Notes: generated from the letters alone by a model not told the origin. A DNA stretch of 64,000 nt from an uncultured virus (IMG/VR IMGVR_UViG_3300035698_011514) (IMGVR_UViG_3300035698_011514), one strand, 5' to 3'; numbered from the stretch's first letter, positions 14,680 through 60,127 are shown. Made by a program: numbers and translations.

Positions 14680-15417
14680 TCAACGACGATTCTTGCGGGC
14701 TGCCTGACGACCCCGAACAGTCTTCGCGGCCTCACGACGCCATGAAGAAGTCTTGTCTTCTTCCTTGTCTTCTTCATCCGCAAAGCGCGAAAGAGGAGCA
14801 GCACGACGAGCCTTCTTATCGTCCTCATCATCCTTCGCAAAAGGATTTTTGCCCGCCTTCTTGTCGTCCTCGTCCTCGTCCTCGTCCTCCGAGAAGAAAG
14901 AGAATCCGGCTTCTACATCACCATCTTCCTCATCATCTTCTTCCGCGAAGAACTGAAAAGAAGATTCTACGTCATCATCTTCGTCATCTTCCTCAGCGAC
15001 GAACCGGAAGGAAGCCATGACATCTTCGTCTTCATCCTCCTCGCTTGCACGACGCCTGCGCCCGGAAGCCATGCGGCGATCCGTCTCAACATAATCATGG
15101 ACATTAGCGTAATCCGATCCGTTGAAGGCATCCATGTAGGAATCTTCATCTTCATCACCTTGAAGAAACTGTGACGGCTCGCGATAAGCATCCATGTAGG
15201 AATCCCGGCTAGGACGTGAAGGCTTCAGATCCTCCTCATATGCGGGCTCCCACAAAGAAATATCTTCGCTATCCAGTACATCCCCCATCTTATCAAGAGA
15301 CAAGCAAATGTTATAAGCGGATTTCTTTGTCAGACCTAACGAAGTATAGTTAGTTTGAATATAATTAGCCACACGGTCCATTCTCTGACTGAGCTTCTTA
15401 GCCGCTTTACGATTCAT
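14680..15417 (-). CDS. acidic low-complexity protein, possible internal head/scaffold protein
   Basis: GGAG RBS; repeats DSYMDA x2 and F.F.AEEDD x3. Confidence 0.65.
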   Translation of the reverse strand: MNRKAAKKLSQRMDRVANYIQTNYTSLGLTKKSAYNICLSLDKMGDVLDSEDISLWEPAYEEDLKPSRPSRDSYMDAYREPSQFLQGDEDEDSYMDAFNGSDYANVHDYVETDRRMASGRRRRASEEDEDEDVMASFRFVAEEDDEDDDVESSFQFFAEEDDEEDGDVEAGFSFFSEDEDEDEDDKKAGKNPFAKDDEDDKKARRAAPLSRFADEEDKEEDKTSSWRREAAKTVRGRQAARKNRR

Positions 15418-15522
15418 GATATACGCTCCATTTGCACGCGCCACATCTTATTTCATGGGCGGTTTTTGACTAAACCGAGAGGATGACCCTCCCAATTCAA
15501 ATTTATTAAAGGATATTGAAAA

Positions 15523-17469
15523 TTAAATCTGATCGTCTAAGTACGCATCCCAAACAATTAGAAGACGTTGGTACGTGGGTGCATCGACCGCCGCCTGTAT
15601 CGTGCCTTCTTGATAGGTGCTTATTGCGTAGTCTAGACACATGCGGCGGCGAGAAGTCTCTTCATGCCTTGCTGCGGAAGATCCAACATACCATTTCAAA
15701 GCGATGCGTAACAGATTCAGCGCATCTGCAAAATTCAGCTCGAAAGTGTTGCGCACCTGCCAAGCTTCTCTAGGAGCCATATGAGAACGGGGATTGTCTA
15801 CGGGACCCGGAAGACCTAGGTATTTCGCAGCCACGATCCGCGATGTTTTATTGCGTTGCGATCTCACATTATACCTCTTCAATATACTAAAAAGCTGATC
15901 AAAGAAACTGCCAAAATCACCACCATATTTTGAAAGCAAACCCTTCTGCTTATCCGTCAGAGAATCACTCTCAATCTTCTTGCGAATGCTTTCAATGCGT
16001 TTTGGTGTGGGCGCGTTAAGGCCCCACTCCGCGAAGAATGCGCGACGTTTGATATCTTGACGTAGATATTCAGACAGTATCTTGCGCTGTTCAGGTCTCA
16101 AACTATGAGATCCCTCTTTAGTGTCTCCATCTACTCCTAAGACTAAACCATAAACAGGTATATCCTTGAAAGCTTCGATAATATCGGAGTCGGATAAAGC
16201 GTCAATACCTTCCAAGAATTCGTCCAGATCTTCAGGGTTAGATAAGTCGTACTCCGCAGGGTTGATCAGTGATTCTTTAGAAAGACTACGCAGGGCGCAA
16301 TCGATTGAGGTGCTTGAGGTAAAGCTCTGATTAATTAAGTGACGATCCGCTTTTTGAAGATAACTTCGAGACTTCTCTTTGAACTCCGAATCTTCTTGCA
16401 CAGACATGTTGCGCAAGAGCTTATTCATGTCCTCAAGACCTTCCATATCTTGTCGCTTCACAACAAGAATGAAATCTTCGGGACTATACTTATCCATGTA
16501 TTCGCGCATTTCTTTAGCATTCGTGATCACAGGAGCTTCCGCGATCTGTGTTTCCCGCTTGGATATTTCGATCTGCATAGACTCCATGATTTTGCTGGAG
16601 TCTTCAGCACTCAAATTCGGTGTAGAAGCATCTTCGTCTATATCTGCATAATTCAAAAACGCGAACACACTAGGTAGGGACGCGCGCGCTTGCGCGAGCT
16701 GGCCAGAATCCATCTGGGCATAGTGTTCCTTGAGAAGATCCATCGGAGGCTTTGTAGAGGGCTCTCCGAGCCATTCCACGAGCCCCGGTGGTAAGGAAGA
16801 AGACATCTGCTGAAGACCTCTGATGTTCTCCAGAGTCTGTTCATCCATGACGTAAGAAGGTTTTTCGGAATCTTCCTTCTTGCGCTTTTGGATCTTCATC
16901 TCACGCTGTCTCTTACTATTTGTCTCAGCGTCCTTATCTTCTATTTCTTCGGCGTATTCTTCGGCTTCTGATAATTTCTTAAAAGTCTTAGCCTCTCCCT
17001 CTCGTGTAAAGACAAGAAAATTGTTGCGCTTGGCTGTGGGAGGGAAAACCTTGAAGGGTGTCTTTCTTTTCTCGTCTTTTTCTGTCCGGCGATCCTGAGC
17101 CTTCTGTCTCTTGGCTTCTTCAGCATCCTCAGCGGCCTTTCGATCTTTGGATACCCATTCTTCAGCCTCATCTTCAGTATCAAAATAGTGAGGATCGAGA
17201 TCATTATCATATACAAGATAGCTGGCTCTATTTTCATTCGGGTTGACTATGACCCAAGGGCGTGATTTGGCAGACCCACCTACATCTTTGTAGTTGAGAG
17301 ATAGATCCTTGTCTTTTGAGTCCAAATCTGGGTCATCTTCTTTGATCGTGCGACGGCGGCGATCATCGCGCGGTGGTTTAGCCTTAGGTGCAGGCTTCAC
17401 ATTCCGCGTGACTTCATCTTCTTCGCGCTTCGCAAGATCCGGGATCTTGTAACTTTTACGATAAGGCAT
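15523..17469 (-). CDS. hypothetical head-module protein (~648 aa)
   Basis: Immediately downstream of the portal; charged N-terminus; duplicated (Y/F)LV......(Y/T)F....EAEE motif. Confidence 0.7.
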   Translation of the reverse strand: MPYRKSYKIPDLAKREEDEVTRNVKPAPKAKPPRDDRRRRTIKEDDPDLDSKDKDLSLNYKDVGGSAKSRPWVIVNPNENRASYLVYDNDLDPHYFDTEDEAEEWVSKDRKAAEDAEEAKRQKAQDRRTEKDEKRKTPFKVFPPTAKRNNFLVFTREGEAKTFKKLSEAEEYAEEIEDKDAETNSKRQREMKIQKRKKEDSEKPSYVMDEQTLENIRGLQQMSSSLPPGLVEWLGEPSTKPPMDLLKEHYAQMDSGQLAQARASLPSVFAFLNYADIDEDASTPNLSAEDSSKIMESMQIEISKRETQIAEAPVITNAKEMREYMDKYSPEDFILVVKRQDMEGLEDMNKLLRNMSVQEDSEFKEKSRSYLQKADRHLINQSFTSSTSIDCALRSLSKESLINPAEYDLSNPEDLDEFLEGIDALSDSDIIEAFKDIPVYGLVLGVDGDTKEGSHSLRPEQRKILSEYLRQDIKRRAFFAEWGLNAPTPKRIESIRKKIESDSLTDKQKGLLSKYGGDFGSFFDQLFSILKRYNVRSQRNKTSRIVAAKYLGLPGPVDNPRSHMAPREAWQVRNTFELNFADALNLLRIALKWYVGSSAARHEETSRRRMCLDYAISTYQEGTIQAAVDAPTYQRLLIVWDAYLDDQI

Positions 17470-45884: not shown

Positions 45885-48800
45885 TTACCCGGAGCAAGAG
45901 ACACAAGCCTCTTCTCTTTCCAGCGCCTTCTGGACGCTACGAACATAATACACGCACTTGACATCCTTTTCCCACGCGTGGAGAAGAACATCGTAGATAT
46001 GCTTCTTGGACATGCCCGGCTTATTCAGATCAAACAGAAGCTCCATGGAGATGCCCGTGTCAATCCATTTCTGAATGGTTGAGGTCATATCCACGATAGC
46101 TTTCTGATCAACATTCTTAAACTCCTGATAATACCAATTACTCTCAGCGAGATAAGGGGGGCAAATAGGGACGGTCTGGCCCCCGTTCTTGTCGAAGAAG
46201 AACTTCCCATAAGGGGGTAAGAATGATGCTGTGCATCCCTGAATAAGTGACGTGGAAGTCGTAGGGGCTATGGCGAGGATTTGAGAATGCCTCAAGCCGT
46301 CACGAGCAATGTCCGCTGCAAGCTCATTCCAAGCGTTACCCATCTTCCCCGTCGCGGCGATGTCTGAAGCCTTGCGGCCAAAGAAGATCCCTTTCTTCTG
46401 CTCGGACAGGTGAAAGGCTCCAAAAGATCCGTGTGTCTTGGCTAGTTTGTGTGAAGCCCTGTGGGTGTAGTAAGCGATCTGCTCGAACACCTGATCTGCT
46501 TCCGCGAGCGCCTTTTCACTAGAGTAAGCGATCTTCCTCTTGGCGAGCCAATCCGCCCAACCCATCACGCCCACGCCGATGGTGCGATACCACTCGTTGT
46601 GCATCTTCGCTTCTGGAATCGGCGTCTCAGTAATATCTATGGACGCATCCAAAAGAATGACAGCCATTTCTGCTATATATTCTAACTCGTCTTCTGTGAT
46701 GACAGCCAGATTTTTAGACAGAAGGTTGCAACAGTGAACAAGGCCCGCCACAGATACCTGCGAAATCTTACCGTCTACAATCTCTTGCTGACCGATCTGA
46801 GTGCGCTTCACGTTGGAAAACGACTCGACGCATTGTCCCGTCGCGATCCCATTGAACACGACCGTATGTGAAGGACTGACCGTCACATCATAGACATCTT
46901 CCTTACCAAGATAGTCGATGGAAGCGATTTTGGTCTCCCACTTTTCCGATTTGAGACTAAGGTAGTGACCTTCACGAAGGCTCTTGCACTGGGTATAGGC
47001 TTTCATCTTGGATGGGAGGTTTGTACCCACTTGCTCCATAAATTGCCATGCATTGTCTCCCTTGAAATCTAGGCGATACATTTGCTGGCATGGGTACAAA
47101 TGGTCTTCACGATTTGTATCTGGAAGCATATGATCATCAGCCTCACGACACGTCTGAATCCGAGACCTCAGCCCTAGCATAGACGCAAGAATCTTGACAT
47201 GCTGAAGCAGGGGAAGGTTCACAGCGCTAATTTGCACGGCAATCGTAGGATTGCTGTCTGCATTCTTGATCTGATAGCAGAAACCATCCGTGTCGAACAA
47301 ACCCTTCAAAAAAGACCTAATTGTCGCTGCGTCCGAATTGTACAACCATGCTGGAATGGTCTTCTTATCTACACAGATCACTTCACCCGCGATGTAGGCG
47401 GCGGCTACATCCGAATTGGTTCCGAATACCTGCTTGGAATTACCATTCAGATATATCTTAGATCCCACTGTCATTTTTGAGAGATGTACCAGCTCAAAGC
47501 TACCATCTTTGTTGACAACAGGAAACTTATGCCACTCGGTACACTTGATCTCAGATCCATCAGACATCTTGACAGAATAAACGTCTGCGTCCTTTGCTGT
47601 AATGGTCATGGCGACATCGGGTGTCACGAGATCATCATTGCCTGTACCCGAGAAACGAGCATCCACCAAGACCTTCGGATTCAATCCTGACTCCCACAAG
47701 ACTTTTGCGGGGACATTTCCCGTCTCGGTCATGATCAATGTGTCTCCCGTGACACAGAGATTTGCTGAAGGGATGATCCCATCTGCCTTGTTAGGATTGG
47801 CGCGATTGATCGTGTCCTTAAACATGAGGTAAGGCATACCCGTTTCAATCAGAATATCAATGATATGCTTGATCAAGTCACGGGCATCCATCGTCTTGTG
47901 CGGAATCAAGCCCAAGGATGCGCACTTCTCCGCGTGCGCATAGCGCTCTTCAAATTCAGATCCCCAACAATCGACCAGATCATACTTCTCGCCCAAGATC
48001 GTCTTAACTTCGTATGGACAAAAGAATGTCCACTTTCCGTTCGCCTTCACACGCTCCATAAAGAGGTCTGGGATCACGAGCTGAGGGTAAATATCAAACG
48101 CCTTTCTGCGCTGATCTCCGTTTTCCGTTTGCATCTCCAAGAAGTCCGGGATGTCCTTATGCCAGATGTCCAATGAGATCGTTCCCGCGCCCGCGCGAGC
48201 GCCCGCCTGATTGACCGCGACAAAAGTATCATTGGCGATGCGAACCCAAGGCAAAACACCACCAGACACTCCCGGCTGACCTAAGACGGCAGATCCCTTC
48301 GCGCGCACGGCGGACACGTTGAGCCCAACACCGCCGCCATTCTTCGAGATGCGCGAAATCTGGTCGATCAGATAGAAGATTGAATCTCTCGAATCATCCA
48401 TCTGGAGAACGAAGCATGACGTGAGGGATCCGCCGACACGGCGAAGATTGCGTAGAAGAGGTGTGGCGAGACTGATCTTGCGCTCAATGAGGACATCGAA
48501 GGCTTTGCGCACTTCCGAAACAACGAAAGTCTTATCTGCGTTCTTAGCTCCTGCACCCCATGCTCTATGGTGCTGAGACATGAGCAAGATAGCAACGGTA
48601 AGGAACATCTCACCTATGGACTCCACGATCACGCCGTTCTTGCGCACAAGATAGCGCTGCATGAGCATGTTCGCGCCCGCGTAGTCAAAATGACGTTCCG
48701 CTTCTTCATTCTTGATCTCGTCAAACCACTCAAGCGGCCATGTGTTCCCTATCCTTGTATCGTAGAGATTATCCTTGAGCATATGCCGTACATGCCCCGA

Positions 48801-49127
48801 GTAGTCTTCCATAGGTCCATAGCCGCGTCCCGTCTCAAGATCCTTCTTGAGGTCCATAATGGCGAGTCGAGCCGCTACAATGCGCCATGCGGGAGCTTGA
48901 GCCGTGGTCAACTTCACAGCGGCATCAATTAGAGAGCGCTGAATCGTCTTAGTTTCCATGCCTTCCACAAAGCGAAGACGGAGATGGGATTCCAAAACAT
49001 GTGATTGAACAGAAAGATCTTCACACGCAGCCTCTACGACCTTGCGGATCTTATCGACATTAAAAAACTGAGAAACGCCGGAGCGCTTCTTGACATTCAT
49101 TTGATCACTCATCATATCCTCAGACAT
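45885..49127 (-). CDS. nrdA: class I ribonucleotide reductase alpha subunit, intein-containing
   Basis: ATP cone, ATP.L.N, SCF, GGGVG, NL[intein]CVE, CNL, APT.STS, YYVRS, C-terminal CVSC. Confidence 0.95.
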   Translation of the reverse strand: MSEDMMSDQMNVKKRSGVSQFFNVDKIRKVVEAACEDLSVQSHVLESHLRLRFVEGMETKTIQRSLIDAAVKLTTAQAPAWRIVAARLAIMDLKKDLETGRGYGPMEDYSGHVRHMLKDNLYDTRIGNTWPLEWFDEIKNEEAERHFDYAGANMLMQRYLVRKNGVIVESIGEMFLTVAILLMSQHHRAWGAGAKNADKTFVVSEVRKAFDVLIERKISLATPLLRNLRRVGGSLTSCFVLQMDDSRDSIFYLIDQISRISKNGGGVGLNVSAVRAKGSAVLGQPGVSGGVLPWVRIANDTFVAVNQAGARAGAGTISLDIWHKDIPDFLEMQTENGDQRRKAFDIYPQLVIPDLFMERVKANGKWTFFCPYEVKTILGEKYDLVDCWGSEFEERYAHAEKCASLGLIPHKTMDARDLIKHIIDILIETGMPYLMFKDTINRANPNKADGIIPSANLCVTGDTLIMTETGNVPAKVLWESGLNPKVLVDARFSGTGNDDLVTPDVAMTITAKDADVYSVKMSDGSEIKCTEWHKFPVVNKDGSFELVHLSKMTVGSKIYLNGNSKQVFGTNSDVAAAYIAGEVICVDKKTIPAWLYNSDAATIRSFLKGLFDTDGFCYQIKNADSNPTIAVQISAVNLPLLQHVKILASMLGLRSRIQTCREADDHMLPDTNREDHLYPCQQMYRLDFKGDNAWQFMEQVGTNLPSKMKAYTQCKSLREGHYLSLKSEKWETKIASIDYLGKEDVYDVTVSPSHTVVFNGIATGQCVESFSNVKRTQIGQQEIVDGKISQVSVAGLVHCCNLLSKNLAVITEDELEYIAEMAVILLDASIDITETPIPEAKMHNEWYRTIGVGVMGWADWLAKRKIAYSSEKALAEADQVFEQIAYYTHRASHKLAKTHGSFGAFHLSEQKKGIFFGRKASDIAATGKMGNAWNELAADIARDGLRHSQILAIAPTTSTSLIQGCTASFLPPYGKFFFDKNGGQTVPICPPYLAESNWYYQEFKNVDQKAIVDMTSTIQKWIDTGISMELLFDLNKPGMSKKHIYDVLLHAWEKDVKCVYYVRSVQKALEREEACVSCSG
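46833..47756 (-). mobile_element. intein (308 aa) with partial LAGLIDADG domain and C-terminal Gln
   Basis: Starts CVTGDTLIMT; block B CTEWHKF; FLKGLFDTDG; VYDVTV..SH.V.FNGIATGQ|C. Confidence 0.92.
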
Positions 49128-52097: not shown

Positions 52098-52351
52098 TTC
52101 GCTTCCTTGTTTGGTATTGTACTCAAAGGCGCTAGGTTGGATCGCGGACCCTTGAAAGGTCGAATAGCCACTTTTTGATGGTATCCCTTCGGGGTCAGGT
52201 AATGCAGCGTTTGAGACACCACAAACACACCACTCCCTATATCTTCGAAGTCTTCAAAAGTTAACTCTTCCCCCTTGGTAAGCAATGGGATTGTTAAGAC
52301 TTTGTGATCTTCCCAGATACCCGGCGCGAACATATAAGTCGTCACAAGCAT
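52094..52351 (-). CDS. hypothetical protein
   Basis: TAATG overlap with the KH gene. Confidence 0.55.
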   Translation of the reverse strand: MLVTTYMFAPGIWEDHKVLTIPLLTKGEELTFEDFEDIGSGVFVVSQTLHYLTPKGYHQKVAIRPFKGPRSNLAPLSTIPNKEAK

Positions 52352-52698
52352 TAAAGGGCTCCCGCAATGATCTTGTGGTCTACAAGCTCAATTTCTATAT
52401 TGTGCCCATACTTGTTTCCGATTGCCTTCATCAGCATCGTCAACGACTTGATCAGGATTCCCTTCTTTCCGATGATCTTGCCCATCTCCTTCGGCGGGAC
52501 CGTAACGGAGAAGATCACTTTGCTTGCTGTTCTCATCGTGGACATAAGGATAGTTGCATTGTCATCAATCAAGAATGCAATCATGTCCTGAAGCATTCCT
52601 TCTAGATCCGGGATCACGTCATACGGTGAATCGCTCATTAGAACACTCGTGGCGGGTTTGCATGTCATATCGTAGTACATGCTGTAATCGGCAGGCAT
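52351..52698 (-). CDS. khpA: KhpA (YlqC/UPF0109)-like KH-domain RNA-binding protein
   Basis: L..MI..LIDD...V...EMGKIIGKKG..IKSL..L..A.G......IEIE; start reset to the ATG after GGAGG. Confidence 0.85.
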   Translation of the reverse strand: MPADYSMYYDMTCKPATSVLMSDSPYDVIPDLEGMLQDMIAFLIDDNATILMSTMRTASKVIFSVTVPPKEMGKIIGKKGILIKSLTMLMKAIGNKYGHNIEIELVDHKIIAGAL

Positions 52699-52779
52699 AG
52701 AGCCTCCTAGGGAAAGACAATCTTGTTGCATGAAATACCCCCCATGATTCATGCACCACCATAACACACAATGCATAAC

Positions 52780-52825
52780 AAGAAAACAAAAAAAGCGCAT
52801 ATAACGATTAAATCGTATGCGCTTT
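52780..52825 (-). terminator. intrinsic terminator closing the 1.5-kb non-coding transcript
   Basis: Minus strand AAAGCGCAT-ACGAT-TTA-ATCGT-TAT-ATGCGCTTT followed by TTTTGTTTTCTT. Confidence 0.75.
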
Positions 52826-54297
52826 CAAGGGCAGAAATATCTAGCGAAAGATTCTCCTGATCACCTACATCACCATCACGCAAATAAAGGCACAGCCCCT
52901 AAGGACTCCGAACTCTATCTGGAGTAGTGTCTATTCATTTATCAGAGAAGGGCATACACGTTGAATCTTGTAGCTCTTGCATCAAGAATTCACTGACGGT
53001 GGGGTATCACCGATCCATTCGTTTAAGGTCGAATGAGGACATCAACACCTACCTGCGCTTGACCTCTTCACATCACGAGAGGTACTGCGTTGGATTTTGC
53101 TATAACGCTTGTTTCCGCTTCTAGGCCCGGAATTTAGATGTAGTAGCCTACGATAATTTGGGTTTCATCGCCGTAATCGTGAGGGGGCGATCCTTATTTG
53201 ATTCCTCTCCAAGAGAGCCCATTGTACTACCCAGCTATGTTGAAACACGACTGGAGCAACGGGACGCTTCTTTGAGGCATACATCCTGTTTAGGTTCAGG
53301 CTGAGACATGTAGTTTGCGTCCGATGTCTAGGTGACGCTCTTTTCTTTATTTATTCGCCCAGCGTGGCCGTCCATGTTTCAGGGATCTTGTCACCAAACC
53401 GAACCGGGAATTAAAGAGTAACGAACCGCTCTTTTTTACGGCGTTGAGATCGCCCTTACGCCCGAGTCGTAAGTGGGGAGTTGCTACTATTGCTTCTCCT
53501 CTTATTGTGATCGCCCCATTTTTCTATCACAACAAACGTCGCCCTGCGTGGTCTAGTCTTCACGAATGAAGACAGTATGTTGGATTTAATGGGATTCTTC
53601 CTCTCCGCCCTACATGGGTTGGACTTTACATTTCCGAATCTCCGCAGAGACCTCGGGATCGTGCAAAGTTGGTTCGAACTGCTACCAACCATTGCCCATC
53701 TTGTTTTACCGCATACGGAATGGATACCCGTCTTGGTGGCATGGAAGCCCTGCATGGCTCCCATCATGGAGAGGTCTTTGATGTCTTTGCTTAGGATATA
53801 CTTAGTCTTGCCTTGCAGAGATACTACGAAAGCCGAATTATGATCCCTCATCTCAAATAGATAAATGGCACAAGCGGGTCTAATGCCCTGATGCTTGCTT
53901 ACCCACCTCCGTCCAAAATTCGTCATCATATTCTGCCTCTTTTTCCCGGTAAGACCCTGATGATCTCTCCTAAACTTGCGAACGACACCCGATCCTATGT
54001 ACGCTTTTTAGACTACTTACGCGCTTGTTTTACATCGTCTTCCACTACCTAGTCAGCGGGGCTCGATGTTCACCTTGATTACATGATCATGTCGTCAAGG
54101 TCGCTTGTAAGAGGCGTAGGAGGCTTTTGACCCATCTACACACGGAGAGTGAGCAACTCCAGCATGGTTCGTCCATGCTCCCTCTGGGGATCGAGAAAGG
54201 AGACTCAAGCGAGTGACTATGATCCTCATCGTCTCCCTTCCAGCGAAAGTCTTGTGGGCGGACTTACCCACCAAACAAGACCTTCACCCAGAAGTTA
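52790..54297 (-). ncRNA. candidate ~1.5-kb highly structured non-coding RNA of unrecognised class
   Basis: No credible ORF; own promoter and terminator; more than 12 hairpins, UUCG loops and G-U pairs on the minus strand; long-range helices. Confidence 0.7.
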
Positions 54298-54303
54298 AGA
54301 AGT

Positions 54304-54332
54304 ACTGTATACGCCTGACGCAGACGTGTCAA
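54304..54332 (-). promoter_or_regulatory. sigma70-type promoter of the candidate ncRNA
   Basis: TTGACA (54332-54327), 17 nt, TACAGT (54309-54304). Confidence 0.75.
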
Positions 54333-54872
54333 ACAATTCTTGATAATCCGCTTGGAAAATGTCCATAACATAAAGATAGAGTAGCCGGACCCATTTTATT
54401 CTCAAAATAGAAGCGCTCACTACCTGTTCCTACGAGGATACGCTTCCAACGTCACCAAAGCCCCCCCAACACCACGAAGCCCCTCGGGGCTTGGTGTGAC
54501 TCGCACAAGCATTAAGCAAGGCTCTACGTCCCTCGTTAGCATGTCCTCACCCTTATCACACCCCCCCTCCGAACATCCTCCCCTAGGATACCTCACTGAC
54601 AACCCACATCCCTTCGAACAGTAAGAGGTGGCACTCTGATCCCCCCTCATCCAAACCATAGCCCCCTAGAACGCCCCTTAAAGCCCTCCGGGCATCCTCC
54701 TCGATGATTCACCCTCAAGGCAAATAAGAAGGTCTCAGTGTTCGTCTTTGGCACCTTCTCGCTTCGCTTCCTTGGAACCCCCCCACGCGTGCGCCTCGCG
54801 CGCGCCAGCGCACACCCGCGCCTCGCGCGCACACCCGCGTTTCTTTCTTCTTCTATATATATATAAATAATT

Positions 54873-55183
54873 AAACAGAGGAGAAGCAATAGTAGGGGGG
54901 GATAGAACCCCTGAAGGGGGTATGAAAAATAATTGAGATATTTTTAAGAAGGTCATTCCAGCCTAAGGAACCAATAAGGGGAGGCCCTTCCGGGGATTGG
55001 TGTCTGTTCTTTGGAGACAGAGAACCTCCACCCAAGGGGGGGTTCTCCCGCATCTCTTACCTACCTTAGCCCTTGAGAGCCCCTAAAAACATAGACACAA
55101 TTCTGTAACACTGTTGTAACACAAATGTCACAAAGATTGTTTTTAGGGTTCTATCCCCCCCTACTATTGCTTCTCCTCTGTTT
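54873..55183. repeat. perfect 38-bp inverted repeat (54873-54910 / 55146-55183), 235-bp spacer
   Basis: AAACAGAGGAGAAGCAATAGTAGGGGGGGATAGAACCC and its exact reverse complement. Confidence 0.92.
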
Positions 55184-55237
55184 GGGTGTTCGATAGCTTC
55201 CCTTCCCCAAGGGGGGAAGGAAAAGGATAGAGGGTGA

Positions 55238-55458
55238 GAAGGGGGATCTTAAAGAAGTGTTCTTAGGAGGGGGGTGGGAAGGGGGATCTTAAAGAGGTGT
55301 TCTTAGGTAGGGGGGGGGGATCTTAAAGGGGGGTTCTTAGGTTGGGGGGGGGGTGGGTAAGGAAGGTTTTTAAGGGTGGGGGGGGGGTGGGGGGGGGGGG
55401 GGGAAGGGGGGATCTTAATGGTGAGCTTGGGAGAGGTTGGGACAGATAGGATCTTAAT
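55238..55458 (+). repeat. G-rich iterated repeats GGGGGATCTTAAAG..GTTCTTAGG
   Basis: Three full copies (~55238, 55278, 55316) and partial GGATCTTAA copies (~55410, 55449), separated by G-runs. Confidence 0.85.
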
Positions 55459-55507
55459 TGTATTTATTGTTTTTAGATATCTTTTAGATTATGTTTGTTC
55501 GGCTAAA

Positions 55508-55539
55508 AAATAAGGTAGCCTGTGATGGCTACCTTATTT
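55508..55539 (-). terminator. intrinsic terminator ending the AAA/vWA operon
   Basis: AAATAAGGTAGCC-TGTGAT-GGCTACCTTATTT. Confidence 0.8.
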
Positions 55540-55557
55540 CTTCACTAGGCATGAGAT

Positions 55558-55884
55558 TCAGGTTGGTCGAATGGAGATTAGGGAAGGGTGCCACTCTAGG
55601 GGTTCTGAAGATCCGTCTCCGAAGAACCGATTGAGATGTTCAACGATCAATTCCTTCATTTCGGGCTCAATCTTGAGGAAGAAATCCTGTTCGAAGTGGC
55701 TGACAATGGGGGATACAAGATCCAAAGAATTCTTCTGCATCTGAATTTTATGATATCTCCGGAGGATATCTGTCTTTGTCTTATCTTGACAGGATGTCTG
55801 GAAGCTACAATGAAACTGGCACTCTTCATGAGTTTCGTCATAGAATCCGTGACAATCTAGCCCTGTTGGAATTCTGTGAGACAT
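55558..55884 (-). CDS. hypothetical protein with N-terminal Cys cluster
   Basis: C.G.YD....EC...C.F...C; AGGTG RBS. Confidence 0.6.
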   Translation of the reverse strand: MSHRIPTGLDCHGFYDETHEECQFHCSFQTSCQDKTKTDILRRYHKIQMQKNSLDLVSPIVSHFEQDFFLKIEPEMKELIVEHLNRFFGDGSSEPLEWHPSLISIRPT

Positions 55885-55889
55885 AGTGA

Positions 55890-58040
55890 TTACACCTTTT
55901 TTAGATGGTGGTTTCGTAGATGGGATGCGAAGGCTTCGGGTAGGTCTTCAAATCCTCGGATCGTGACGCAGTGTGGTAATCCTTCTGTGTGGGGAGAGAA
56001 CCCTGTTTGGCAGATATTGAGCAAGAGTGGCGATACCTGTTTGGAAGCATGTGCCCACCGCACCTTAAAGAGGTGAAGTGGGTCTCCGCTCCCATTACAG
56101 GCGTAATATGGCGCCCCATCCGAGATCAAGATCAGGTGCTTATTCTTTTCGGATCGGGACAGGAGTATTTGCAAAGCCTTATCCACAGCGTCACCAAGGG
56201 GCGTGTAGCCCTGCGGGTGGAAGCCCGCCATTCTGGCTTGTGTCTTGAGCGCGAAGGGTTCGTGGAAGTCTTTTGCCACGTTCAGGATGAGATGATCATA
56301 GTGTGTGTACCTATCGCCCCTCATGGGTTTCACATCAGACACCTGACAGGTAAAACCCACAACAGCGAAGGGTACATTTAGACTCTTGAGGATAGATCCG
56401 ATAGCGAGGAGAGAAATGATTGCAATATCCAAAACAGATGTCATGGATCCTGACAAGTCAAACATGATAATCACGCAGGACTTATCCGCTTTCTCCTGTG
56501 ACCTAATTTCAAAAGGTCTAGGCTTATTGGCATGAATCGTCGAAAGGCTTCGAGTTGAGACTTGGCGCCCGCTTGTTTGGTAGGGCTTGCGGACACTCTT
56601 GTCTTTGTTTTCAAGCATTGACACAAGAGGCGGGCGCAGCTTGGTCAAGTAGGGCTGCGCTTGAGGCATGTAAACCCTCAAGGCATTCTCATTCTCTCTC
56701 CCTTCGCTAATTTGATCTTTGACGCTTGAAGGCCGCAGAATACGGTTTTCGAGATGCCCCTTCTGGAACTCATGCTGGATATGTTTTTGGATATCTTTGT
56801 TGAAGCTGTCTGAAATATCCGTATCTACTTGTATATCTTTTTCTTCCATGTCAGACAGGCTTTTCCTACAATTACTGCCTCCATTCTTCGCAGGAGCGGG
56901 CGCGTGGTTTTCCCCATCCTCTTCCGTTCCCTCCACGTCTTTTCCATCTTCGTCAGGATCTACATCCCCATCGAAGTCACCGGGATCACCGTCACCGGGA
57001 TCACCGTCACCGGGATCACCGTCACCGGGATCACCGTCACCGGGATCACCGTCACCGGGATCACCGTCACCGGGATCACCGGGTTCCCCCTCACCTGAAT
57101 CCTCATCAGGATCACCGGTGTCCCCCTTACCGGGGTCCTCTCCATCGGAATCATCCTCATTGGACTCCCCTTTACTGGGCTCCCCTTGAGAGTCATCTTT
57201 GCCCGCATCATCTTCTTCTGCTTCTTCATTGCCGCTCGGTTCCTCCAGATGATCGAGCAAGAGAAAGAGCGCCTTCAGGGCGACGGTCAAAGTCTTGTAG
57301 GTATCGTCTGCTATCAGCGCCTCATGCAAGAGTGCCTGAGGATAGATGTCTTTGATCTCCTGCGGGCGCTCAGGCAAGTCTTTTAAATATATTAAAGATT
57401 TACAATGATCTCTTAGATACATTATTGAGTGAGCGCAGTACCATTCGGTTGTGCCTTCCACCAAATGCTGCACCACTTCTTCTTTCTTCCAGATATAGTT
57501 GTGGACGGACTGAAGAAGGTAGGGGGCACCGGGAAATCTGGCACATCCTTTACGCTCGATCATGACATCTTCAAAGACATTCCAAAACGTCTTGATGAGG
57601 GGCTGGACTTTCGCTATCTTTTCAACATCCCATAAGGGTTCAATGGCTTTGAATATCTTTTTGACGTTCGGAACACCTCTTAGCGTGTACAGGGAATGAA
57701 ACACCTCATGGAGCAACCCCCCGTCCAGAGCTGTCTGTATGTCTGTGGGGCTATCTGGTGGTATGGAAGGCATGAAGATTGTGTTAGGTGACTTTGACTT
57801 CTCGTAAGACAGGTTCACCTTCGCGTAAGCTTTTTCTACGACGTCTTCACTGAAGTTTATTTCTTTGGAGCGAAACACTTCTAAAGCGATACCAATGACA
57901 CGAAAGTCTGAGCTGTTGGCGAAGTCTCCACCGCCCACTTTCACTTTCAGATCGGCCTCGCGCGCGATGATGCGCGCGACCGTCCCATGCTGGCGCTCGT
58001 AATCCCCTACCCATTGGTTCAGGATCGTCTTCATCGCCAA
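55890..58040 (-). CDS. vWA-domain protein (CobT/MoxR-partner-like) with HExxH domain and acidic linker
   Basis: LLHEVFH; MIDAS DLSGSM, TP, ISDG. Confidence 0.85.
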   Translation of the reverse strand: MAMKTILNQWVGDYERQHGTVARIIAREADLKVKVGGGDFANSSDFRVIGIALEVFRSKEINFSEDVVEKAYAKVNLSYEKSKSPNTIFMPSIPPDSPTDIQTALDGGLLHEVFHSLYTLRGVPNVKKIFKAIEPLWDVEKIAKVQPLIKTFWNVFEDVMIERKGCARFPGAPYLLQSVHNYIWKKEEVVQHLVEGTTEWYCAHSIMYLRDHCKSLIYLKDLPERPQEIKDIYPQALLHEALIADDTYKTLTVALKALFLLLDHLEEPSGNEEAEEDDAGKDDSQGEPSKGESNEDDSDGEDPGKGDTGDPDEDSGEGEPGDPGDGDPGDGDPGDGDPGDGDPGDGDPGDGDPGDFDGDVDPDEDGKDVEGTEEDGENHAPAPAKNGGSNCRKSLSDMEEKDIQVDTDISDSFNKDIQKHIQHEFQKGHLENRILRPSSVKDQISEGRENENALRVYMPQAQPYLTKLRPPLVSMLENKDKSVRKPYQTSGRQVSTRSLSTIHANKPRPFEIRSQEKADKSCVIIMFDLSGSMTSVLDIAIISLLAIGSILKSLNVPFAVVGFTCQVSDVKPMRGDRYTHYDHLILNVAKDFHEPFALKTQARMAGFHPQGYTPLGDAVDKALQILLSRSEKNKHLILISDGAPYYACNGSGDPLHLFKVRWAHASKQVSPLLLNICQTGFSPHTEGLPHCVTIRGFEDLPEAFASHLRNHHLKKV
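56976..57080 (-). repeat. 7 x 15-bp perfect tandem repeat encoding GDPGD
   Basis: (GTCACCGGGATCACC)7. Confidence 0.95.
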
Positions 58041-59221: not shown

Positions 59222-60127
59222 ATGCGCGCACCATATCCCTACTTCGGCGGAAAAAGTAAAATCGCTCCTCTCATATGGGAGCGCTTTGGGAAGATTCGGC
59301 ATTACGTCGAACCTTTCGCGGGATCGTTAGCCGTTTACCTAGGCTGTCCAGAAGGGGTTCACCCCGCGAACACGACGCTCAATGACCTTGATGGGTATAT
59401 TACTAATTTTTGGCGCTCTGTGAGATCACGCCCTCTCGATGTGGCAAGTCACGCAAAGAGACCTCGATCTGAAATAGACATGGTCGCCTGCCATGGGGAG
59501 ATCCAGAGGAGACGTGAAACCTTGACCTTAAACCTTATGCGCGATCCTTATTACTGTGATCCCGAACTCGCGGGTTGGTGGGTTTGGGGTATGTCTGTGG
59601 CGATAGGAGATCGTTGGCTTCAAATTTTTGAAGATCCTGAGCCTTTCCGCTCCGCCGCACCAAAGCTAGAAACTTCGGGTGTGTTCTCCGTGTATTCGGG
59701 AGGGCTTGAGAAGTGGATGCAAGATTTGGCTGCTTGTCTTGTGGAGTCGCGCATCTTGTGTGGAGACTGGAAGCGGTGCGTTACGGATGGCATTCTGTAT
59801 TATCGAGATTGGGATACGGGCATATTTTTGGACCCACCTTACAAGGGGGAAGGTCGCAGGAAAAAGATTTATAGTTTTGACCTCGCAGATGAGGTCGACC
59901 TTCATAAAGAAATACAAGATTTCTGTCTCGACACAGGGACGAACACGAAGATAGCTGTATGTGGTTACGAAGGGGATTTTGAGTTCCCGGAAACATGGGA
60001 ATGCGTGTCGTGGAAATCTAACGGCGGCTACGCTAGTGATGGCGCGGGGAGAGAGAATCGAGATAGGGAGCGCATATGGTTTTCTCCCGCCTGTCAGAAG
60101 CCTGATAAGACGCCTAGCCTGTTCTAG
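59222..60127 (+). CDS. DNA adenine (N6) methyltransferase, D12 class
   Basis: PYFGGK, YVEPFAGS, NDLD, FLDPPY. Confidence 0.9.
   Translation: MRAPYPYFGGKSKIAPLIWERFGKIRHYVEPFAGSLAVYLGCPEGVHPANTTLNDLDGYITNFWRSVRSRPLDVASHAKRPRSEIDMVACHGEIQRRRETLTLNLMRDPYYCDPELAGWWVWGMSVAIGDRWLQIFEDPEPFRSAAPKLETSGVFSVYSGGLEKWMQDLAACLVESRILCGDWKRCVTDGILYYRDWDTGIFLDPPYKGEGRRKKIYSFDLADEVDLHKEIQDFCLDTGTNTKIAVCGYEGDFEFPETWECVSWKSNGGYASDGAGRENRDRERIWFSPACQKPDKTPSLF

Follow-up and report, generated by a model that had tools for sequence, protein, structure and literature searches.

Background

GOLLD and ROOL are large, ornate RNAs associated with phages and prophages. To our knowledge, bacteria and phages have yielded very few large RNAs with an elaborate structure beyond ribosomal RNA, RNase P and introns, and we know of no linked KH-domain gene as a feature of GOLLD or ROOL. 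Promoter-driven noncoding transcripts also occur in replication regions, where RNA II of ColE1 and the origin transcripts of phage T4 are examples. OLE, according to the abstracts of the literature on it, is an RNA of ~600 nt from Gram-positive extremophiles with the protein partners OapA, OapB and OapC, and no KH-domain partner is named in those abstracts. In the abstract of a structural report, GOLLD and ROOL are said to form RNA-only multimers, and the structures of GOLLD, ROOL and OLE are described as homo-oligomeric complexes (PMC12286853). Here, we analysed a 64,000-nt stretch of DNA from an uncultured virus (IMG/VR IMGVR_UViG_3300035698_011514), henceforth referred to as the window. An initial annotation, made from the sequence alone, had proposed that positions 52790-54332 encode a structured noncoding RNA (ncRNA) of ~1.5 kb on the minus strand, larger than described phage RNAs and possibly of a new class. 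We find that a large ncRNA is the best reading of this tract and that a new class is plausible, whereas the proposed domain architecture is unsupported and a kinship with the RNA of related phages no more than putative.

A candidate noncoding transcript bounded by a promoter and a terminator

The window derives from a large, novel phage with a tightly packed genome, most of whose genes are on the minus strand. Between the gene for a 108-aa Cys-rich protein and a KhpA-like KH-domain gene (hereafter the KH gene) lie ~2.8 kb without a convincing gene, and the tract is the downstream 1.5 kb of this interval (Table 1). The minus-strand promoter said to bracket the tract is indeed present and matches 10 of the 12 sigma-70 consensus positions. 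Its -10 region, CAGGCGTATACAGT, is the sole match in the window to a motif found upstream of the KH gene in relatives of this phage. Promoter-like sites as such are not enriched in the region (3 seen versus 4.0 ± 2.0 in shuffles). At the other end, the predicted hairpin and U-tract were recovered as an intrinsic terminator with seven U residues. The hairpin has a z-score (z) of -3.1, with 2 of 200 shuffles as stable; a simple scanner missed this terminator because the stem is bulged.

We searched the whole window with the 4227 models of Rfam 15 at gathering thresholds and obtained 0 matches. The models presumably include GOLLD, ROOL, OLE, introns, RNase P and tmRNA. When E-values up to 10 were accepted, the region 52300-56000 gave only four matches (E 1.9-4.6), to small unrelated families and at chance level. 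A blastn search of the tract against 50,697 phage records yielded no match. The tract or pieces of it are found in four DNA sequencing runs labelled salt lake metagenome, and there is no RNA run among the sequencing runs listed as holding it. The pieces over 52790-54332 are identical across all four salt-lake runs, which therefore offer no natural variants for an analysis of covariation. The promoter-terminator unit, the lack of an Rfam match and the presence of a conserved element with RNA-type covariation in the same slot of all eight relatives described below together make a large ncRNA the best reading of the tract.

A structured RNA occupies the same slot in related phages

We aligned 35 CobS-like proteins and thereby recovered 11 metagenome loci and 7 viral loci, which were reduced to 8 distinct relatives reaching the slot (L001, L002, L003, L004, L005, L008, L009 and L016). 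These are large phages on contigs of up to 437 kb (L016), and their CobS proteins share 41-48% identity with that of the window; CobS-like homologues at 63-66% identity exist on short contigs. No close relatives were found in viral contigs via the KH, CobT-like and CobS-like proteins, or in genome contigs via the CobS alignment. L001, L002 and L003, with L004 nearby, constitute group A, and L005, L008 and L009 constitute group B; L016 stands apart from both.

The order p309, CobS-like, CobT-like, p108/p249-like, gap, KH and clamp-loader genes is found in all eight relatives and also in the window. In each relative, an element free of open reading frames (ORFs) lies just upstream of the KH gene, on the gene strand. 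It is ~0.9-1.3 kb long in the six relatives measured and ends near a promoter-like motif before the KH gene. This motif, GTGATCTGGGTATAAT or CTGGAGTATAGCC, is conserved in five relatives at 70-90 nt upstream of KH. The KH proteins of the relatives have 86-88 aa, and at its opposite end the conserved slot is bordered by relatives of the 108-aa Cys-rich protein. Homology between the gaps is evident inside each group: those of L001 and L002 share 67% nucleotide identity over 1096 nt, while the adjacent p280 proteins of the same two phages, at 33% identity, are far more diverged than the gap, and those of L005 and L009 match with an nhmmer E-value of 1e-41. Across groups, nhmmer matches centre on a low-complexity, purine-rich AGCA array. 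The gaps of the relatives contain no conserved reading frame, only short similarities of 13-58 aa in multiple frames and on two strands, and none has a match in Rfam.

We assessed whether these gaps fold. The consensus fold of the three group A sequences reached -359 kcal/mol, compared with -254 to -281 in five column shuffles. It contains 72 compensatory pairs out of 239, whereas column shuffles gave 44-52, pair shuffles 29 ± 4 (0 of 500 as high) and slid controls 7-20. The hairpins are capped by GNRA loops (GAAA, GCAA and GAGA) on the gene strand. The consensus energy of group B was likewise below that of its shuffles (-466 versus -389 to -412 kcal/mol); its compensatory pairs numbered 94, which we do not regard as above the column shuffles (80-93).

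Covariance models of the 5' domain were built from group A (R1) and from group B (R2), and a further model of 57 positions (R3) from the 5' core of all eight relatives. Neither R1 nor R2 detects the other's group. L004, however, was found by both (E 8e-6 with R1, E 9e-7 with R2) and L016 by R2 (E 3.6e-4), and these matches tie the lineages into one family. In the R2 alignment of the 5' domain, which comprises five sequences from three lineages, 94% of the cells are paired and 14 of the 28 pairs are compensatory (shuffles gave 6.9 ± 1.6, with 0 of 500 as high, and slid controls gave 0-4), although this alignment was fitted to the model and thus somewhat favours structure. Sigma-70-like promoters matching 9 of 12 positions end 8 nt (L008), 10 nt (L016) and 28 nt (L005) before the conserved 5' domain, which fixes the strand and the likely start of the RNA; no upstream promoter was found by the scanner in L001 and L009. 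That the gap in the relatives encodes a structured RNA, and that this RNA constitutes a new family, is well supported. In the parts of the literature covered, on jumbo and huge phages, on GOLLD and ROOL, and on OLE, KhpA and KH domains, no report of such an RNA was found, and the family looks new.

Several other features of the relatives' slots were recorded. Group B gaps contain two to three copies of a ~30-nt module, CAAUGACUUCCUGAGUCGGGGRAUGACGG (L005 15415-15640, L008 14480-14570, L009 15700-15730), and group A has a related motif, GAUGAACUUCCUGGG. In group A gaps, 4-6 GATC sites are also clustered in a span of 120 nt, with TATATAT and the purine-rich AGCA array coming after them in this order (L001 5758-5830, L002 15210-15275, L003 15118-15220). 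We considered this cluster as a family-wide origin signature and rejected it, because it is confined to group A and absent from group B and L016. In L004, an extra 314-aa gene on the opposite strand (14942-15886, -) lies between the upstream gene and the RNA, and the slot therefore tolerates insertions. tmRNA genes occur ~5 kb upstream of the CobS-like gene in L002 (4981-5348, -) and L003 (5463-5848, -), with Rfam scores of 50 and 102 bits, respectively; none was found in the window.

Predicted folding of the tract

The minimum free energy (MFE) of the whole tract on the minus strand is -478 kcal/mol (z -3.0; 0 of 22 shuffles as low), compared with z -2.1 on the plus strand. Coding DNA reaches equally low values, however: five controls of equal length from the same phage gave z-scores of -1.05, -4.78, -3.12, -2.65 and -0.73. 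The tract falls inside this range (-0.7 to -4.8), and its global stability therefore proves nothing; the whole-tract folding energy is without distinction from that of coding DNA. Sliding windows of 200 nt had a mean z of -1.0 in the tract versus -0.4 in the flanking genes. Exceptional stability is limited to the first 138 nt, for which we calculated -66.4 kcal/mol (z -6.5; 0 of 200 shuffles as stable). The three-way junction predicted there comprises the hairpins 54249-54281 and 54195-54240, and the three hairpins of this 5' domain have pair probabilities of 0.94-0.99 in the ensemble of the whole RNA.

All 14 local stems listed in the initial annotation can fold in isolation, but only half of them are strong in the whole-RNA ensemble, where the mean pair probability is at least 0.9 for seven stems, 0.31-0.62 for three and at most 0.06 for four. 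The long-range helices fared less well. The helix 53943-53950/53403-53410 is strongly predicted and present in the MFE structure, with 7.3 of 8 pairs expected, and the helix that was to close the 5' end (54287-54292/54183-54188) forms partially (3.3 of 6 pairs expected). The helix 53951-53960/53379-53389 is weak (0.36 pairs expected), and the pairing of 52861-52902 with 53290-53335 is absent from the ensemble (0.02 pairs expected). As an isolated duplex, the latter has an energy of -34.5 kcal/mol, but in 26 of 27 dinucleotide shuffles a long-range duplex of equal or greater stability could be formed. Long-range helices overall are at chance level, and the multi-domain architecture that they were thought to close is no better than chance.

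Coding potential of the tract

No reading frame extends across the tract in the standard code, nor does reassignment of any single stop codon produce one, and we rejected recoded stop codons on this basis. The longest frame comprises 183 aa; with read-through of TAA, the maximum is 295 aa. The tract is not entirely devoid of ORFs: one of 157 aa is present that begins with ATG and is preceded by AAGAGG. Its codon score, -0.076 per codon, is below those of all 27 training genes (0.08-0.26) and also below those of the 6 small neighbouring genes tested. No match to this ORF was found in Pfam or PHROGs, and a word-based search of 5.8 billion proteins returned only the ORF itself. An exhaustive HMMER search of 1.84 billion representatives returned the ORF and one chance-level match to a lectin-repeat protein (E ~1e-3). 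The AF2 model of the ORF has a mean pLDDT of 30, and the ORF is not conserved in the relatives. We conclude that it is probably spurious. We also rejected a weak HMMER resemblance between the 183-aa frame and a SUEL-lectin repeat protein: its E-value is ~1e-3, five repeats add up to its score, and a Pfam scan of the ORF detected no lectin domain.

Relation of the tract to the RNA of the relatives

The tract and the RNA of the relatives have in common their slot, strand, size class, ORF-free nature and promoter type. In both, a stretch of ~1 kb or more without ORFs lies on the gene strand between the p108/p249-like and KH genes, with a sigma-70-like promoter directly upstream (found in L005, L008 and L016 among the relatives). 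At ~1.5 kb, compared with 0.9-1.3 kb in the six relatives measured, the tract is about as long or longer. It differs from the relatives' RNA in ending at a classical terminator and in its purine-rich sequence. The relatives have a pyrimidine-rich tract and, after it, an AGCA array of 150-250 nt, whereas the window's tract has only an 18-nt remnant, a single GAGGAGAAGCAAUAGUAG, which is reminiscent of these arrays and recurs twice in the spacer on the far side of the promoter. The 18-mer GAGGAGAAGCAATAGTAG occurs in three exact copies in the window (53484-53501, 54878-54895 and 55161-55178), where 0.08 are expected; one copy is in the candidate RNA, and the other two are the cores of a 38-nt inverted repeat in the spacer.

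We compared the tract with the relatives' gaps at the level of sequence and of structure. Searches with single sequences by blastn and nhmmer produced no match between them, and three profile HMMs made from the relatives detected nothing in the tract. With filters off, R1 gave best E-values of 0.18-0.36 over 52700-55600, which is chance level; R2 had no match in the window, and the 17 matches of R3 in the window at E up to 10 include none in the tract. The family motif GAUGAACUUCCUGGG is absent from the tract, and the conserved 5' domain (a G-rich/C-rich hairpin, an A-rich linker, CGAUG, a second hairpin and ACUCC) had no above-chance match within 52700-54400. The retrievable relatives are too distant for the tract to be aligned with them, and no covariation is measurable for the tract itself. 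The motif type that the relatives have close to KH stands 1.5 kb upstream of KH in the window, which would also fit an insertion into the leader of the KH gene. Together with the folding energy of the whole tract and the chance-level long-range architecture, these results weigh against the view that the tract is the counterpart of the relatives' RNA. The weight of the failed searches is limited by the fact that the window is as distant from groups A and B as these are from each other. Groups A and B are also mutually undetected and linked only via L004 and L016, and the negative result is therefore weak evidence against orthology. An overlay by eye of 54210-54274 on the relatives' 5' core, including a GUGGG/CCCAC hairpin, AAGUC/GACUU in pseudoknot order and UCGCUGGAAGGGA versus CGAUGUAAAGGA, is without statistical support and was not counted.

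Genomic context of the tract

The positions of the features discussed here are collected in Table 1.

Table 1. Positions of the candidate transcript, its signals and its neighbours in the window, and of the KH-proximal motif in the relatives
Feature	Position	Strand	Remarks
Candidate noncoding transcript, ~1.5 kb (~1510 nt)	52788..54297	-	promoter-to-terminator interval
Sigma-70-like promoter TTGACA-N17-TACAGT	54304..54332	-	10/12; predicted transcript start ~54297
Strongly structured 5' domain	54160..54297	-	predicted three-way junction closed by CUUCUGG/CCAGAGG, then hairpin 54161-54179
Repeat core GAGGAGAAGCAAUAGUAG inside the tract	53484..53507	-	two further copies in the upstream spacer
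157-aa ATG ORF, probably spurious	53456..53929	-	AAGAGG 7 nt upstream
Intrinsic terminator	52788..52826	-	interrupted 15-bp hairpin (52826-52791), then UUUUUUU; -15.6 kcal/mol
KhpA-like KH-domain gene, directly downstream of the tract	52351..52698	-	Pfam KH_KhpA-B, E 4e-10
Gene of 108-aa Cys-rich protein, upstream neighbour	55558..55884	-	tblastn matches in 9 loci
KH-proximal motif	L001 6299, L003 15779, L005 16322, L008 15253, L009 16710; window match 54317		

A module of replication and nucleotide-metabolism genes surrounds the tract, comprising ribonucleotide reductase (RNR), a RecD2-like helicase, RecA, three clamp-loader-type subunits, a CobS-like AAA protein, a CobT-like vWA protein and a Dam-like methylase (59222-60127). 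The KH protein of the window shares 26% identity with that of L005 (E 7e-12). The longest ORF of this gene would begin within the terminator, at 52800. A more probable start is the ATG at 52698, which is preceded by AGGAGG and is a better fit to the length of the relatives' KH proteins. The gene for the 108-aa protein has its own terminator at 55505-55542 (z -6.8). The RNR large subunit (45885-49127, -) is split by an intein with a LAGLIDADG domain. The CobT-like protein (55890-58040, -) contains a long acidic GDPGD repeat, and 1.5 kb within its gene (56200-57697) had the lowest folding z-score of all controls (-4.8).

The ORF-free spacer of 1.2 kb upstream of the promoter (54400-55540) is highly repetitive. 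It contains five repeats of 34-40 nt, each with GGGGGATCTTAA (55232-55437), a perfect 38-nt inverted repeat (54873-54910/55146-55183) around 235 nt, direct repeats rich in GC (54784-54830) and an (AT)6 tract (around 54854-54865), as well as long C/G runs and a sharp local flip in GC skew. Such a spacer might serve as an origin or in regulation, or might represent a segment that is invertible or mobile.

Interpretation and alternative explanations

A conserved large RNA occupies the slot in every relative that could be retrieved, and we therefore read the tract as this lineage's version. We hold this reading, a very divergent ncRNA occupant of a conserved large-ncRNA slot, with a confidence that falls a little short of even. 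Host RNA polymerase would start at the near-consensus sigma-70 promoter, at ~54297, and stop at the intrinsic terminator, at ~52788; the resulting ncRNA would be ~1.5 kb long, and its 138-nt 5' domain would be very stable. This RNA may be a diverged orthologue of the relatives' RNA or a functional replacement for it. The RNA would be made early and would work as a ribonucleoprotein (RNP) with the adjacent KH-domain protein, perhaps as a scaffold, or as a sponge for a KH protein that binds single strands. We infer the partnership with the KH protein from conserved adjacency alone, and we also infer the transcription, the function and the kinship to the relatives' RNA that are proposed here for the tract. 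The tract itself would be a divergent variant of the new family at most, and the evidence for its membership is circumstantial. A broader proposal is that a clade of large salt-lake phages has an undescribed class of ncRNA of ~0.9-1.5 kb, transcribed from host-type promoters, invariably encoded directly upstream of a phage KhpA-like KH gene and forming an RNP with the KH protein, of which the RNA of the window would be the largest and most divergent member. We regard this as possible and rather doubtful.

The tract might instead be lineage-specific filler, a decayed gene cassette or the remnant of a mobile insertion that has no function of its own and may be transcribed by accident from a leftover promoter. 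The absence of similarity to phages, Rfam, the relatives' gaps and protein databases speaks for this, as do a folding energy like that of coding DNA and a repeat core common to spacer and tract, and the slot does take insertions, as seen in the 314-aa gene of L004 and in the extra 1.2-kb repeat-rich spacer of the window. However, the genome is otherwise tightly packed, the near-consensus promoter, the clean terminator and the exceptionally stable 5' domain have been retained, no frame fragment resembles any protein, and the identity of the sequence in the four salt-lake runs gives no view of decay in progress. We consider this explanation unlikely. It shares one observation with another, in which the tract serves the KH gene as a very long regulatory leader: transcription would begin at 54297, and the terminator (52826-52788) would be a conditional attenuator controlling expression of the KH gene. 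In the relatives, GTGATCTGGGTATAAT/CTGGAGTATAGCC stands 70-90 nt before KH, and nothing in the window matches it except the promoter, which is 1.5 kb upstream, so that the readings as a leader and as an insertion both gain. The region of the KH ribosome-binding site also directly follows the terminator. A leader is nonetheless improbable: the relatives possess an upstream promoter for the RNA in addition to the motif that precedes KH, a sequence weakly resembling the latter, GTGTGTTATGGTGGTGCATGAAT, comes after the terminator of the window, and a leader of 1.5 kb would be far longer than those known to us, which counts against it.

The surroundings of the tract suggest a different possibility, that the whole 2.8-kb gap is a replication origin and the transcript an origin primer or R-loop RNA. 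The gap lies within the replication module (RNR, RecD2-like helicase, RecA, clamp-loader subunits and Dam-like methylase), the five repeats of 34-40 nt in the spacer resemble iterons and are accompanied by (AT)6, G/C runs and the sharp GC-skew flip, and in group A the GATC sites and TATATAT precede a purine-rich array, where RNA-DNA hybrids would form more readily. Yet the cluster of GATC sites and TATATAT is absent from group B and L016, the iterons are upstream of the promoter and hence outside the transcript, and no initiator gene was identified. The covariation and GNRA loops of the relatives point to a folded RNA rather than to DNA sites, although RNA II is folded too. An origin is, in our judgement, about as improbable as a leader. 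Least of all do we expect the tract to be protein-coding, with the 157-aa ORF as an orphan early protein with long untranslated regions, or with several very small proteins. The ORF (53929-53456) has its ATG and AAGAGG, it was predicted by a gene caller on a public contig, and many real small genes of this phage are also without Pfam or PHROGs matches. Its codon score is nevertheless below those of the 27 training genes and 6 small neighbours, two very large protein searches returned no homologue, and its model has a pLDDT of 30. It covers only 474 of the ~1510 nt, and about half of the tract is occupied by minus-strand ORFs that have 30 aa or more and fall largely inside it.

Comparison with known RNAs

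A further class of RNA would be a good target for studies of function and structure if its members reach ~1 kb or more, if it persists among phages with 40-50% identity in their marker protein, and if it is linked to the gene of a dedicated KH-domain RNA-binding protein. The window's own tract is of more limited value, as a marker of the slot and an indication of the speed at which such an RNA can diverge or be replaced. Like the ColE1 RNA II and T4 origin transcripts, the candidate would be a noncoding transcript near repeats and AT-rich DNA, but unlike in those systems the repeats are upstream of the promoter. The OLE RNP, in which a large structured RNA has dedicated proteins encoded nearby, provides a model for the proposed partnership of RNA and KH protein. 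With GOLLD and ROOL, the tract shares the character of a large noncoding RNA in phage genomes with many local hairpins, and it is about twice their length of 600-800 nt (the size given in the initial annotation). If it is the largest member of its family, the 1.5-kb RNA of the window would be about twice the size of GOLLD, ROOL or OLE.

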